Positions 1 through 26,605 of a DNA stretch of 64,000 nucleotides are shown here, one piece after another (the stretch's first letter is position 1; every line of letters begins with the position of its first letter). The notes below the pieces were generated by a model. That model was not told the origin of the DNA. It ran no database searches and saw only the letters and a list, made by a program, of their open reading frames with translations. A program made the position numbers and the translations under genes. Origin of the DNA: Escherichia phage KK4; the sequence record OR327750.1, one strand, 5' to 3'.

Positions 1-1096
1 CAGTCGCTTTAACTCCTTTTAAGGAACTAATTCTACACATCAAGGCTTCAAAGCACAGATCCATTCGTTCATTAAATAGCTCAACAAATTTCTGTTCATT
101 GAACTGTGTTCCAATATAAGAATCTAACGCGATGCGAGGAAGATTCAGTGTTACAACACCGAGATTATTACGTCCATCAAGAATTTCATTACCAGTCGAA
201 TCTTTCCATACGCTCAAGAAACTACGGCAGCCCATCGGAGAAACAGGAATAGATGAACCAGTGATAGCTTTATTGTTCTTAGCTGAAATAATATCAGGAT
301 ACATCCTTTTGCTTGCACACTCTAGAGCAAGCTGCTTAATATTATAGTTCGGATCGTCTTTATAAAGATTAACACCTTCTTCAACGAACATAACAAGCTT
401 AGGGAAAATAGGAGTTATCCCATCACGACCGAGACCTTTAATACGATTTTTCAGAATTGCTTTCTGAATCATTCGTTCAGTCCAGTCAGTTCCCGTACCA
501 AATGTAATTGTTACAAAAGGCGTTTGTCCGTTTGAACTAAAGAGAGTATTTACTTCATATTCATAAGCTTGGAATGCATCGTATACGTCTTTTTCTGTTT
601 TAGATTGAGCATAATTTAACGCATCAGCGATTTGCCATTTTTCTGCATCCTCAATATGTTTTGCATAGGTGCGTTTAACATAAGGAGAAAGTACTTTATC
701 TACATTAGCAAAAGTCGTTCCGCCGTATTGGTGAGAAGCAACCTGTGCAGTAATTTGTGCCATAATTGCAGTAGCAACGCCAATTGATTTAGGAGTTTCA
801 ATCTGCGCATTACCTAGCTTAAATCCGTTCTCAAGCATTCCTTTTAAATCTACTAAACAGCAATTAGTAAATGGAAGAGCAGGGGAATAATCAATATCGT
901 GGAAATGGATAATTCCGCTTTCATGCGCTTTCATAATAAAAGACGGGACCATATTTTTGGCAATGTGTTTAGACACAATACCAGCCATAAGGTCCCGTTG
1001 AGTTGGAAAAACACGAGAATCTTTATTAGCATTCTCGTTTAAAAGGTCTTTATTAGTTTTATGAATCAATCCTTCAATTTCTTTTTCAATTGTCAT
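1..1096 (-). CDS. nrdD: anaerobic ribonucleoside-triphosphate reductase NrdD, N-terminal ~365 codons (gene continues beyond window start)
   Basis: Manual minus-strand translation from ATG at 1096-1094: MTIEKEIEGLIHKTNKDLLNENANKDSRVFPTQRDLMAGIVSKH...; absent from ORF track because open at window edge; sits next to gene 49 as in T4. Confidence 0.7.
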   Translation of the reverse strand, partial: MTIEKEIEGLIHKTNKDLLNENANKDSRVFPTQRDLMAGIVSKHIAKNMVPSFIMKAHESGIIHFHDIDYSPALPFTNCCLVDLKGMLENGFKLGNAQIETPKSIGVATAIMAQITAQVASHQYGGTTFANVDKVLSPYVKRTYAKHIEDAEKWQIADALNYAQSKTEKDVYDAFQAYEYEVNTLFSSNGQTPFVTITFGTGTDWTERMIQKAILKNRIKGLGRDGITPIFPKLVMFVEEGVNLYKDDPNYNIKQLALECASKRMYPDIISAKNNKAITGSSIPVSPMGCRSFLSVWKDSTGNEILDGRNNLGVVTLNLPRIALDSYIGTQFNEQKFVELFNERMDLCFEALMCRISSLKGVKAT

Positions 1097-8807: not shown

Positions 8808-9776
8808 TTATTTCAGAAGAGTAACCTCAGCAATTTCTTCCCAACCGTTTTTGTCGGTCATAATAAAGTCAGCAAGATAAAGAGCAGTACGCAGTGAAAC
8901 ATTGCGTAAACGATTAACATTAACTTTCATCCATGATAATGCTTTATAAGTTTCTTCATCAGAAAGACCGCGCTTTTGCATCATGTCAGTTGAAAGAATA
9001 ACATCTTCAACCCTGACCATAATTTCTTCATTAGTGTGAACACCCAAATCCAAATAAACTGAGCGGGACACTAATGCTTGTAAGTGTGGAGCAAGTTTAG
9101 TACCACGGTCTAATTCGCGGTCAATGTCAACGTTTGTGATAAAAACAATCGTTCCTTTAAATTCAAACTCACGGTCAATGCCTTTTTCTTCTAAGTAAGA
9201 AGATGCAGTGCTCCAGCAGACTTTACGGGTCTCTCCAGTGTCCAGAGCAGCTTTCAGAAGATTAAGAATGTCCATATCAGAGAAAACATCCACATCATCA
9301 ATCAAAAGGACAGAATTCTCTTCACGATTATTCCAAAGCTGCTCATAAAGACCAATACCAGAGATTTTACCATTAATGCTTTTATATTCAATGTATCCAT
9401 TATCATTTGCTTTATTTAAAGCTTTATCTAAAGAATACGTTTTACCAATACCTGCTGCGCCAGAGATAATTAATGAACGAATATTTCCATTAATAATACC
9501 ATTCGTCATCATTCCCATAACATTAAATCTTTTATTAATGCGGGTTTTCATATCTTCATATGATTCTTTAACTTCTTCAACTTTTACACCATCATATGAA
9601 ATATCTGATTTGTAAACCCAAACACCGCGACGTTTACCGTCAATTTCAACAAAAACTTTACCATCTCCTTGTGCATCTACCGGAGCATTATCTGGGAACC
9701 ATTCGCCTAAGAGCTCAAAAGTTCCAGAGATTTCTTTACCGAAGTAGATACCCTTATTGATAGTTACAGTTTTCAT
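8808..9776 (-). CDS. P-loop (AAA-like) ATPase, 322 aa
   Basis: Walker A GAAGIGKT, Walker B LLIDDVD, TIVFITN sensor-like segment; start moved to ATG (MKTVTINKG) after GGAG because the longer ORF reads through the promoter. Confidence 0.65.
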   Translation of the reverse strand: MKTVTINKGIYFGKEISGTFELLGEWFPDNAPVDAQGDGKVFVEIDGKRRGVWVYKSDISYDGVKVEEVKESYEDMKTRINKRFNVMGMMTNGIINGNIRSLIISGAAGIGKTYSLDKALNKANDNGYIEYKSINGKISGIGLYEQLWNNREENSVLLIDDVDVFSDMDILNLLKAALDTGETRKVCWSTASSYLEEKGIDREFEFKGTIVFITNVDIDRELDRGTKLAPHLQALVSRSVYLDLGVHTNEEIMVRVEDVILSTDMMQKRGLSDEETYKALSWMKVNVNRLRNVSLRTALYLADFIMTDKNGWEEIAEVTLLK

Positions 9777-9800
9777 TTTATTCTCCAAATCCGTATCAGT

Positions 9801-9830
9801 TGATAGTTGTATAGTACCATAAAGCTTTAT
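9801..9830 (-). promoter_or_regulatory. T4-type early promoter cassette upstream of ATPase gene
   Basis: GTTTAC-N18-TACTAT; A/T-rich UP-like element; same 21-nt -10/leader segment as at 8360 and 24045. Confidence 0.55.
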
Positions 9831-9863
9831 GCTTGTAAACCGTTTTGTGAAAAAATTTTGAAA

Positions 9864-9891
9864 TAAAAAAAAAGGGAGCCCGAAGGCTCCC
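9864..9891 (-). terminator. rho-independent terminator after nucleotidyltransferase gene
   Basis: Hairpin GGGAGCC-ttcg-GGCTCCC then 9-nt U-run on minus strand. Confidence 0.7.
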
Positions 9892-9894
9892 TTA

Positions 9895-10908
9895 TCATTT
9901 ATAATAACTTCGGTGGTTTTCAAGATAAACCCTCTCAAGGAAGTCATCCCAAAAACCCATGTCTACTTTTTGCTGCATACCGTTCTTAGAAGCTTCAATG
10001 GATGCTGCTTCTACTTGATCGACCACATCTTCCAAAAACTCTTGAACAGTTTTAAATGGGTGTTTACCCAGCTTCACGTCGAGAATAAATGGAGCGTCTT
10101 GAAGTGGATAGACTAAGTCACCAGTTTTGTAAATTTCCAATAGTTGGAGTCCACCACGACAAGCATGACTCAGAGCTTTCCAGTCAATGCCCTCATTCGC
10201 TTCAGCCTTACGAGCACGTTCGCCGTATTCAGCATCTAATTTGTTCAGTGACTGCTTAAGCTCAATAAGAGAAAGTGTTGTCTGATATTTACGACCCAAC
10301 ACAGTGTAGAACGTTTGTGGACCGGTTTTCTCATGATTATGGAATACCCATTCACAGAATTCGTTCTCTGGAAGACGATGCTTAATATCTTCAACTTTAG
10401 TGCGACGCTGCTTAATGGAACCGTCTTCTTGATAATCAACCCACTGGTCAGGGATTTGATTAACTACTTTCAATACATCACGTAATGCGGCCAAACGAGA
10501 ACCCTTGACACCGTATTTAGAAGCTTGCTTGCGGACATATCCTAAATAGGATTTCATGTTAGTTGTATAAAACCGTGAACGATTGTCTTGGATAAATTTC
10601 CATACATCAGGTAAATCAGATTTAACCACTAGTTCAGGTGGAGTGTGGAGCATATCCAATGCTACAGTTTCACCATCTGCAGCTAATTTAAAGAAATACT
10701 TAAGACTGTATAGTTCATGGTCAATATCATCTTTAGTGTTTTTAGATGATGTGTTGTTCGTGTTTTTACTCATATGCTCTTTAACATTTCCGATAAGAAT
10801 ATCGCGAGCAGGAGGAACAAAGATTTCTTTAAAATCTACATCAGATTCTGGAGTAGAAGTTCCATAAAGATGACTACCAAAATAGCTTTTCATTACTGTT
10901 TTCATCAT
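9895..10908 (-). CDS. Pol-beta-superfamily nucleotidyltransferase-fold protein, 337 aa
   Basis: N-terminal FGSHLYGTSTPESDVDF fits hG[GS]x9-13DhDh; followed by minus-strand terminator. Confidence 0.55.
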   Translation of the reverse strand: MMKTVMKSYFGSHLYGTSTPESDVDFKEIFVPPARDILIGNVKEHMSKNTNNTSSKNTKDDIDHELYSLKYFFKLAADGETVALDMLHTPPELVVKSDLPDVWKFIQDNRSRFYTTNMKSYLGYVRKQASKYGVKGSRLAALRDVLKVVNQIPDQWVDYQEDGSIKQRRTKVEDIKHRLPENEFCEWVFHNHEKTGPQTFYTVLGRKYQTTLSLIELKQSLNKLDAEYGERARKAEANEGIDWKALSHACRGGLQLLEIYKTGDLVYPLQDAPFILDVKLGKHPFKTVQEFLEDVVDQVEAASIEASKNGMQQKVDMGFWDDFLERVYLENHRSYYK

Positions 10909-18171: not shown

Positions 18172-18385
18172 ATTTGACTTCCTCACCAGTACATAAATCG
18201 TATTCAACTAAACGAATAGGTTCATGAATGCCATATCCCTGAACAGAAATTTCTGTCGTAGGATAAATTCCACTAATATCACCCATATTCCACGCTTCAT
18301 TAAATTGCTGTTCGCCTGAATTACTAAACCATTCTGCGAAAGCATTTAACACATCTTTAGAACCTTCAATAATTATCTTTGCCAT
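18164..18385 (-). CDS. hypothetical protein, 73 aa
   Basis: Minus ORF, ATG start. Confidence 0.45.
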   Translation of the reverse strand: MAKIIIEGSKDVLNAFAEWFSNSGEQQFNEAWNMGDISGIYPTTEISVQGYGIHEPIRLVEYDLCTGEEVKYD

Positions 18386-18747
18386 TACAAGCTCTCAGTA
18401 AAGGTACGAGCGATAACGTCGCGCTGCTGTTCCGGAGTCAGAGAGTTAAAGCGAACTGCATAACCGGATACACGGATGGTCAGCTGCGGATATTTTTCCG
18501 GATGCTTAACTGCATCTTCCAGAGTTTCACGACGCAGAACGTTAACGTTCAGGTGTTGACCACCTTCAATTTTAACTGTAGGCTGTTGCTCAATTTCAAT
18601 TTCACGGGCATGCAAACCATAGAAAATTTCTGGGTCTACAAAAGAGTCCTCTTTAAAGGTTTTAGAGACAATAATTCGTGCTTGAATACCATCTTCAAAA
18701 TAAATAGTACCTTTATGTGTGCCTTCAAGAATTTGATATGCTTTCAT
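18385..18747 (-). CDS. autonomous glycyl-radical cofactor, GrcA/YfiD-like (T4 Y06I-like)
   Basis: C-terminal ~60 aa [63 protein letters not shown] matches E. coli GrcA glycyl-radical domain from memory; locally higher GC. Confidence 0.8.
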
Positions 18748-18753
18748 ATAACC

Positions 18754-19083
18754 TCAATTAGAAAATAATTTTATCCAAGATTGTTCTTTAATTAAAAATG
18801 GCTCAGAATCATATGCCATTAAACTTTGAGTAATTAATCCTTTAAATGGTCCATCAATAAATTCCATGGTAAAATATGGAATTTTATTCATTAATCTTGC
18901 ATTAGGAGCAGTGCACAAAACTCTGCATCCTTTGAATACACCTTTTTGTAATTTGTATTGCTTGGGATAAAATTCGCTCAAGACGTTGTTATTTGCCAAA
19001 ATTTCAAAATGATTCACCAATTTATTTTTAATAGTTTTTGGCGAAAAATAAAGATATTCGAAAAGTTGCGTATCTGTCATCAT
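18754..19083 (-). CDS. hypothetical protein, ~109 aa
   Basis: Start at tandem ATG ATG overlapping upstream stop. Confidence 0.45.
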   Translation of the reverse strand: MMTDTQLFEYLYFSPKTIKNKLVNHFEILANNNVLSEFYPKQYKLQKGVFKGCRVLCTAPNARLMNKIPYFTMEFIDGPFKGLITQSLMAYDSEPFLIKEQSWIKLFSN

Positions 19084-19764: not shown

Positions 19765-20181
19765 TTAAATGTAAATATTTTTGCCGTAATACTTATACCA
19801 GTGTGGCTTCATTAAAATTTTTTCATCGAGTCGTTGTTGACTCAACTTAATAGCTGATTTGCATGGATTATAATCATTTTTCCATTCTACTGGAATATCG
19901 CTGATGTCAGGAACTTCAGTATCTTTTATACTGAACCCGCGTTTTAAGCATTCCGTTATAATGTCCGATTGACGCTTTCGCAAAAATTCTAACTTATCGT
20001 AAAAGAAAGTAACATGACCAGAACCTAAAATAAATTTAGAAGATATTTTAAAATCTTTAACGCGCTTACCGTTTGCCACATGCTTACGAACTATACCAAA
20101 AACACGCGGCAATTCACGGTATTCTGCGATTAAATGTTGATCAGCAAGTTCAGATACTAAAGTCAAATTAATACGAGTCAT
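19765..20181 (-). CDS. denV: endonuclease V (pyrimidine dimer DNA glycosylase)
   Basis: 138 aa; [37 protein letters not shown] matches T4 DenV from memory. Confidence 0.9.
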
Positions 20182-20206
20182 TTTATCCCTCCAAGTAACT
20201 GTGAAT

Positions 20207-20236
20207 ATACTATCACAATTCTAGGAGAAAGTAAAT
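20207..20236 (-). promoter_or_regulatory. early promoter of denV
   Basis: ATTTAC-N18-TAGTAT on minus strand. Confidence 0.5.
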
Positions 20237-20240
20237 AGCT

Positions 20241-20771
<531 letters not shown>

Positions 20772-26426: not shown

Positions 26427-26501
26427 TGGCGGACGTGATAGGATTCGAACCTATAACCAATCGCTTAACAGGCGATCGCTCTGCCATTGAGCTACACATC
26501 C
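26427..26501 (-). tRNA. tRNA-Asn (anticodon GUU)
   Basis: Manual cloverleaf: anticodon loop CTGTTAA, T-loop TTCGAAT, encoded CCA. Confidence 0.75.
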
Positions 26502-26505
26502 AAAT

Positions 26506-26592
26506 TGGTGGGGAGTGATGGAGTCGAACCACCCGAGTCGCAATGACAATGGATTTACAGTCCACACCGCTACCTCTACGGGATAACTCCCC
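26506..26592 (-). tRNA. tRNA-Tyr (anticodon GUA), type II with long variable arm
   Basis: Manual cloverleaf: anticodon loop CTGTAAA, 87 nt, encoded CCA. Confidence 0.7.
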
Positions 26593-26605
26593 TTAATTCT
26601 TAATT

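Follow-up and report, generated by a model that had tools for sequence, protein, structure and literature searches.

The E. coli protein GrcA (YfiD) acts as a spare part for pyruvate formate-lyase (PFL), which belongs to the glycyl-radical enzymes: residues 61-127 form a structured domain that duplicates PFL residues 693-759 and docks into the damaged enzyme (PMC8683613; PMC13450708), and the disordered residues 1-60 help in binding and in activation (PMC8683613). As far as the work of Wagner et al. (2001) is related in PMC8683613, both YfiD and its bacteriophage T4 counterpart, Y06I, restore O2-cleaved PFL in vitro once PFL-AE has placed the radical on them. The phage gene, vs.6, was present in all six (6/6) T4-like genomes compared by Nolan et al. 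(2006, PMC1524935), where a role in nucleotide metabolism was guessed. In an unrelated metabolic setting, T4-like cyanophages carry psbA, a host-derived metabolic gene rendered mosaic through exchange with the host, in which the GC content of a segment betrays its origin (Sullivan et al. 2006, PMC1484495). Here we analyse a vs.6 gene in which both of these themes meet. We consider it highly probable that the gene encodes a phage-borne GrcA-type spare part for the host PFL, that its 3' half was converted from E. coli grcA, and that such conversion is recurrent.

The gene lies in a 64,000-nt stretch of DNA from Escherichia phage KK4 (hereafter the window), the first 12 kb of which are 100% identical to the Tequatrovirus Escherichia phage GADU22. 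In the ORF listing it appears as a 120-aa ATG-to-TAA reading frame on the minus strand (Table 1). The Pfam domain Gly_radical (PF01228) spans residues 60-101 of the product (E 2.5e-18, 67 bits against a cut-off of 22.2 bits), the match to PHROG 1209 is full-length (residues 1-120 on profile positions 1-121 of 121, E 5.7e-63), and the syntenic T4 vs.6/Y06I product is identical at 118/120 residues. Gene order follows the T4 tk-regB-denV early region (vs.1, regB, vs.3-5, vs.6, vs.7, vs.8, denV, e), with vs.6 placed between vs.7 and vs.5 as in T4. Its TAA (18387-18385) overlaps the ATG of vs.5 (18385-18383), and the GAGG motif upstream of its own start overlaps the TGA stop of vs.7 (18756-18754); the same start/stop-coupled arrangement is common to HX01, Nispero, Roth27 and Taquito. 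We identify the ORF as the vs.6 gene of a Tequatrovirus and the orthologue of T4 vs.6 (Y06I). An antisense ORF on the plus strand (18379-18768) was dismissed as lacking support, and a scan for promoters and terminators returned no more sites than were found in shuffled sequence.

Table 1. Features of the vs.6 locus, in window coordinates.
Feature	Position	Strand	Basis
vs.6 (Y06I) CDS, predicted autonomous glycyl-radical cofactor	18385..18747	-	ORF, Pfam, T4 synteny, PHROG 1209
GAGG Shine-Dalgarno-like motif, 4 nt 5' of the vs.6 ATG	18752..18755	-	read from the sequence; putative function
Phage-type 5' half, residues 1-59 and first base of codon 60	18570..18747	-	45.5% nt identity to grcA, GC3 0.20, dN/dS, conserved residues
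Host-derived patch, 175 nt, encoding the structured glycyl-radical domain (GrcA codons 68-127 region)	18395..18569	-	SK1144 match, BLAST, breakpoint statistics, GC
GGT codon of Gly95 in RVSGYAV, predicted radical glycine (= GrcA Gly102, PFL Gly734)	18463..18465	-	alignment to PFL 697-759 and GrcA
Last 10 nt, phage-type bases (GAG, TTG), marking the 3' recombination junction	18385..18394	-	both grcA mismatches

Public records label vs.6 homologues inconsistently, as 'pyruvate formate-lyase', '2-ketobutyrate formate-lyase', 'ribonucleotide reductase subunit' or 'hypothetical protein', and PHROG 1209 carries the label 'unknown function', although T4 Y06I was characterised in 2001; our analysis corrects this common mis-annotation. 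Elsewhere in the window, the gap between denV (19765-20181) and e (20241-20735), positions 20182-20240, holds neither ipII nor ipIII, both of which lie between denV and e in T4 (about 1.1 kb); this internal-protein region varies among close T4 relatives. Two adjoining minus-strand ORFs at 8808-10908 correspond to T4 nrdC.10 and nrdC.11, the one at 8808-9947 with weak AAA/STAND NTPase matches and the one at 9895-10908 with an RlaP nucleotidyltransferase match.

The two halves of vs.6 relate to host grcA in entirely different ways. A BLASTP alignment with E. coli GrcA covers residues 22-120 at 74% identity; from residue 61 to residue 120 the sequence is the same as that of GrcA 68-127. At the DNA level, a BLAST search of complete E. 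coli genomes showed that positions 18385-18569 match the 3' end of grcA at 183/185 nt (98.9%) in 5,426/5,426 genomes; the core of this segment is identical to the SK1144-type E. coli grcA allele over 175/175 nt, and the K-12 allele differs from it by one mismatch, at a synonymous site. The homology to grcA starts abruptly two bases before the EGGQH codons and runs up to and including the stop codon. By a maximum chi-square test (chi-square 130), the 5' breakpoint falls after gene position 178 (window position 18570), with identity to grcA rising from 45.5% on its left to 98.9% on its right; none of the permutations was as extreme (0/2000; Fisher p = 1.7e-35). This crossover coincides with the onset of nucleotide similarity between any phage copy and grcA, and residues of the 5' half are conserved across phage lineages. 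We place the 3' crossover at the last 10 nt because both mismatches to grcA within 18385-18569 fall there, and because the GAG base is common to unrelated phage lineages.

Base composition changes at the same place. GC content is 0.33 in the 5' half and 0.49-0.50 in the 3' half, the window as a whole averaging 0.358. GC3 rises from 0.20 in the 5' half to 0.45 in the patch, where the background value for phage ORFs is 0.236 +/- 0.068; a GC3 of 0.45 is reached by only 0.35% of 60-codon windows in the ORFs of the whole 64-kb stretch. Codons favoured by E. coli (CTG, CGT, CCG) are used in the patch. When the entire 64 kb was compared with E. coli chromosomes, no match other than the patch segment was found; a weaker match to pflB falls on this same segment. 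We take grcA and not pflB to be the donor, since the patch DNA is 98.9% identical to the former and 79.5% identical to the latter. The host-like character of the 3' half of vs.6 is thus confirmed, far beyond chance.

Most of what the first-pass annotation had read from the letters of the window stands. It had described a GrcA/YfiD-like autonomous glycyl-radical protein, in agreement with the Gly_radical match and the orthology to T4 Y06I given above; it had equated the C-terminal ~60 residues with those of GrcA, and the 29-letter peptide that it quoted is present exactly; it had seen that the DNA there is more GC-rich than its phage surroundings, as the composition figures bear out; and it had proposed the nucleotide BLAST comparison with grcA that yielded the 183/185 nt. 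Its description of the N-terminal half as phage-specific has to be softened. The low nucleotide identity to grcA agrees with it, but the protein remains weakly alignable to GrcA from residue 22 onwards, as a diverged homologue.

Two further observations concern matches between phage and host DNA. A synonymous Arg site at window position ~18500 is polymorphic: E. coli has CGT or CGC, and phages have CGT, CGC (L095) or CGG (L097), the last two being T4-type contigs from IMG/VR; in T4 the same codon is CAT (His). Conversion from different host alleles could account for this variation, as could a mutable site, the data being too few to tell. Secondly, the tRNA cluster of the window (26441-26598) matches tRNA-Tyr/Thr/Asn arrays on plasmids of ~90-110 kb in 255/5,426 E. 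coli genomes (83-90% identity), with no chromosomal match in these 5,426 genomes; these probably represent phage-plasmids whose tRNA arrays are related.

Synonymous sites locate the source of the patch and its direction of travel. The phage 3' half has a dS of 0.046 to E. coli (2/45 synonymous sites), the values for Salmonella, Citrobacter and Klebsiella being 0.53, 0.44 and 0.66-0.78; for the same domain, dS between E. coli and Salmonella is 0.44, and that between E. coli and Klebsiella is 0.56-0.65. With 0.046 to E. coli and 0.44-0.78 to the other genera, the patch therefore nests inside the genus Escherichia. The first-pass annotation had named elevated nucleotide identity relative to protein identity as the touchstone of its reading, and the host-likeness of the DNA indeed exceeds what the protein needs, as the 0.046 set against the E. 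coli/Salmonella value of 0.44 makes clear. Extreme nucleotide conservation or convergence after a single ancient capture, imposed by codon or RNA-structure constraint and involving no recent transfer, might be invoked instead, given how little the protein domain varies among bacteria and phages. We give this explanation practically no credence: synonymous sites vary freely among hosts at the dS values just listed, other phage lineages encode nearly the same protein with just 70-85% DNA identity, and the phage 3' halves carry host-species-specific synonymous states, including a Klebsiella-type 3' half in Klebsiella phages.

It is just as improbable that the transfer ran the other way, with E. 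coli taking the 3' half of grcA from a T4-like phage. Identity alone says nothing about direction, and no specific evidence favours this route. The composition and codon usage of the patch are E. coli-like and not phage-like, and the discontinuity is in the phage gene. Bacterial grcA, for its part, is equally diverged in its two halves (E. coli vs Klebsiella: dS 0.57 in the 5' half and 0.56 in the 3' half; E. coli vs another Escherichia species: 0.044 and 0.045) and keeps a conserved ung-grcA synteny, as vertical descent predicts. Note that Citrobacter values for the 5' half were left out of this comparison due to a wrong start codon. Taken as a whole, the sequence pattern indicates that the patch moved from host to phage.

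The pattern fits homologous recombination that replaced the matching part of an existing phage homologue, and not a fresh capture of the whole gene. The 5' half of vs.6 is old phage sequence; the phage already had a homologue, and the 175-nt grcA core was very probably copied into it from host DNA by homologous recombination (gene conversion). The crossovers are at the edges of the sole region conserved enough for pairing, i.e. at the EGGQH codons on the 5' side and within the last ~10 nt on the 3' side. Once the patch was installed, perfect homology would ease re-conversion and could hold the phage and host copies in concert.

Homologues of vs.6 are found in ~1,500 phage records, at least 505 of which have >=95% identity to the 3' half of grcA. 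A comparison of the window with HX01-type phages (Mosigvirus) isolates the patch from its surroundings: identity is 68-70% in the flanks, 88-90% in the 5' half, 98-100% in the patch and 70% in the last 10 nt, and one HX01-type phage (L098) matches E. coli over the patch at 175/175 nt. Synonymous divergence between the Tequatrovirus window and the HX01-type phages is 0.42-0.47 in the 5' half and 0.07-0.15 in the 3' half, where 6/45 synonymous sites differ against an expected proportion of 0.349 (binomial p = 0.001); raw counts for L118 were left out because of a frameshift in the contig. As the 3' half is less diverged than the 5' half, the patch is younger than the split between the Tequatrovirus and HX01-type lineages. 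The E. coli patch in Tequatrovirus and Mosigvirus may reflect independent conversions, or one conversion followed by phage-to-phage exchange.

Phages of Klebsiella have undergone an analogous replacement. In Jiaodavirus, GC content reaches 0.57 in the 3' half, which matches a Klebsiella grcA at 96.5% over 173 nt and that of E. coli at 85%, carries the Klebsiella-specific residues LLDAVEH, and has the same boundaries as in T4. That the best Klebsiella match is 96.5% and not 100% means either that the true donor species is unsampled or that the event is older. In CC31-like, Slopekvirus/Pseudotevenvirus, T5-like, Aeromonas and giant phages, the 3' halves reach only 70-85% identity to whichever of 85 host grcA genes is nearest, and have a GC content near that of their own genomes; these phages retain old, AT-adapted 3' halves. 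A Salmonella grcA query found no phage above 95% identity, and the grcA 3' halves of 36 other host species found no near-identical phage in the phage collection (E limit 1e-68). Host-specific patching is not general, since none was found for Salmonella or for these 36 species. The IMG/VR loci L121 and L162-L172 were excluded from the phage cases, since these contigs, although classed as viral, carry what looks like grcA or pflB of bacteria.

Judging from these sequences, host-specific replacement has happened at least twice, and three times if both E. coli-type lineages were converted independently. One can go further and propose that the glycyl-radical half of vs.6 evolves in concert with the host chromosome, having been overwritten by the grcA of the current host at least twice (Escherichia and Klebsiella), in the same domain and between the same two anchors, and being refreshed by host DNA; we rate the chances of this stronger statement as evenly balanced. 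A further possibility is that the patch, while real, is selectively neutral, a by-product of the highly active T4 recombination system, which pairs degraded host DNA with the only segment that can pair, and without effect on function. The protein would be almost unchanged without the patch (dN of the 3' half is 0.09 for CC31-like and 0.02 for Slopekvirus-type phages), the patch boundaries are the limits of nucleotide similarity, and the searches for Salmonella and the 36 other hosts yielded no patch, all of which suits neutrality. The fixation of the patch in at least 505 phage records and the host-specific amino acids LLDAVEH brought in by the Jiaodavirus patch speak against it, neither being proof of selection. 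While taking neutrality seriously, we lean somewhat against it.

Searches for vs.6 homologues also turned up sequences of separate interest. A distinct phage group of uncultured ~150-kb viral contigs (L111-L116 and L123) has a vs.6 homologue with a longer N-terminal part of 70-77 aa; the 3' halves are nearest mostly to Pasteurellaceae grcA, at just 78-83%, which suggests that the hosts are non-enterobacterial. Among bacterial GrcA clusters, P0015 and P0038 combine the N-terminal part of GrcA with a PflB-type C-terminus (SLTKEQQQDVITRTFTQSM), one of the two clusters having 900 members in Logan assemblies. Such clusters could stem from gene conversion between grcA and pflB within bacteria, or else be chimeras of the two paralogues created during assembly.

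What the converted domain is likely to do follows from its relatives. In a PDB sequence search, the radical domain of Vs.6 aligned with PFL 697-759 at 49/63 identical residues (78%, E 5e-26), and the C-terminal half matched GrcA in entry 6OWR (E 9e-42), the C-terminal domain being identical to this solved structure. The phage patch matches the structured half of GrcA almost exactly, and because of this correspondence we predict Gly95 to be the radical site. The 5' half of the gene has a dN/dS of about 0.058/0.47, i.e. about 0.12, relative to HX01, and, being under purifying selection, is functional; by analogy with GrcA, this phage-specific part may serve in binding. The NCBIfam GrcA equivalog model TIGR04365 has a cut-off of 170 bits, which the window protein, at 154.9 bits, does not reach, because its N-terminal half is divergent; the same model scores E. 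coli GrcA at 233.9, a CC31-like phage protein at 157 and a T5-like protein at 121.9 bits. With the architecture and motif of GrcA, the protein is best filed under the phage Vs.6/Y06I family, as a member that is putatively GrcA-like in action.

In the infected cell, host PFL-AE would install the radical on Gly95 of the Vs.6 C-terminal domain, which would then replace the O2-cleaved glycyl-radical domain of host PFL, and PFL would keep making acetyl-CoA, as well as formate, in a cell that no longer produces GrcA. Such spare-part activity has been shown in vitro for the T4 orthologue, and we infer it for the window protein. Once infection has silenced host genes, its likely use would be to keep PFL running despite exposure to oxygen in the gut.

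The first-pass annotation had suggested a different use, in maintaining anaerobic dNTP synthesis by the glycyl-radical ribonucleotide reductase NrdD, which it placed in the same window. Window positions 1-1096 (minus strand) hold the first 1096 nt of nrdD only, encoding the N-terminal ~365 aa, and both the glycyl-radical C-terminus of nrdD and nrdG fall outside the window. (In GADU22, a putative homing endonuclease lies between nrdD and nrdG, just outside the region corresponding to the window.) The direct version of this proposal, that Vs.6 is a spare part for the class III ribonucleotide reductase (RNR) of the phage itself, replacing the O2-cleaved C-terminus of NrdD and being activated by NrdG, has some circumstantial appeal. 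NrdD and NrdG are encoded in the phage genome about 18 kb from vs.6, the T5-like phage Bf23 also has both a GrcA-like gene and nrdD, and the same O2 cleavage affects all glycyl-radical enzymes; reviewers have speculated about spare parts for others (PMC8683613). Nevertheless, direct repair of NrdD finds no support in the sequence. BLASTP detected no similarity between Vs.6 and the NrdD of this phage (E 3.9), and there were no NrdD chains among the PDB matches to Vs.6, even at E<=10, as against 5e-26 for PFL. A scan of the window for the NrdD radical motif (RxCGY-type) revealed none, returning RVSGY in vs.6 and a chance RSCGY in a 42-codon ORF. The radical domain is, base for base, that of host GrcA, with its 78% identity to PFL 697-759, and demonstrated spare parts exist solely for formate lyases (PMC13450708). 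We consider direct NrdD repair very improbable.

An indirect connection to dNTP synthesis is another matter. By preserving PFL, Vs.6 could secure formate as the reductant for phage NrdD, and this could be its main benefit, with energy secondary. The class III RNRs characterised so far, those of the T4 and E. coli type included, use formate as their reductant (PMC4493059). As a matter of established biochemistry, PFL is the formate source of the cell. In two phage families without relation to each other, the T4-like and the T5-like, a GrcA-like gene is found together with nrdD, but this co-occurrence is anecdotal, and the supply of acetyl-CoA and ATP by PFL is equally able to explain the benefit. 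The path from vs.6 via PFL formate to anaerobic dNTP synthesis is plausible as such; that it constitutes the main benefit we regard as unlikely, without dismissing it.

The vs.6 gene, its T4 orthologue and the in vitro activity published in 2001 are not new, and GenBank already contains the sequence. We found no description of the nucleotide identity between vs.6 and grcA, or of the host-specific replacement in Klebsiella phages, in the searchable literature; Wagner 2001 or Miller 2003 may mention the identity. The quantified result is the mosaic, with 175 nt of living E. coli sequence residing in a lytic phage and the rest of 64 kb being without a chromosomal match. Should the swap be recurrent, vs.6 offers a natural gauge of how frequently T4-like phages recombine with host DNA. 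This frequency is hard to measure, and it matters for the evolution of host range and for how safe therapeutic phages are. Concerted evolution, of which the searchable literature yielded no account, would, if true, offer a rare chance to track host-to-virus gene conversion as it proceeds, and this in strictly lytic phages, which break down the genome of their host. Finally, our analysis indicates PFL, and via formate possibly the anaerobic ribonucleotide reductase, as the process that these gut phages shield from oxygen.

How, then, does vs.6 compare with the systems described to date? Class III RNR NrdD shares with Vs.6 the glycyl-radical superfamily and O2 cleavage at the radical glycine, but its activase, NrdG, is another one, and a spare part for NrdD has yet to be described. 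The C-terminal domain of PflB (residues 693-759; PDB 1H16) has the RVSGYAVRF radical loop in common with Vs.6 and is the part that a spare-part protein replaces; however, Vs.6 is a stand-alone 14-kDa protein, whereas PFL is an 85-kDa enzyme. E. coli GrcA (YfiD, 6OWR, TIGR04365) shares the two-part build, with ~60 N-terminal residues followed by the structured glycyl-radical domain. Vs.6 differs from it in having an N-terminal half that is only weakly similar (about 45% at the nt level) and 7 residues shorter, and in being carried by a lytic phage, where it lies in a cluster of early genes and lacks the host promoter region. T4 Vs.6/Y06I (NC_000866, 63557-63919) is the same gene, with the same length, the same position between vs.7 and vs.5, the same mosaic and the same breakpoints. 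The two proteins differ at two residues, Q54 and R73 in the window protein being P and H in T4, and relative to E. coli grcA the patch has no differences in the window copy and one, non-synonymous, in the T4 copy.

As for the mosaic itself, host-phage intragenic recombination in cyanophage psbA is the closest described analogue. Like psbA, vs.6 has a sharp intragenic breakpoint, synonymous sites nested within those of the host and a host-like base composition. Unlike psbA, vs.6 encodes an accessory protein of enterobacterial fermentation, and the exchange involves one defined domain, with the same boundaries in every case; furthermore, the Tequatrovirus vs.6 patch is still identical to a living host allele.
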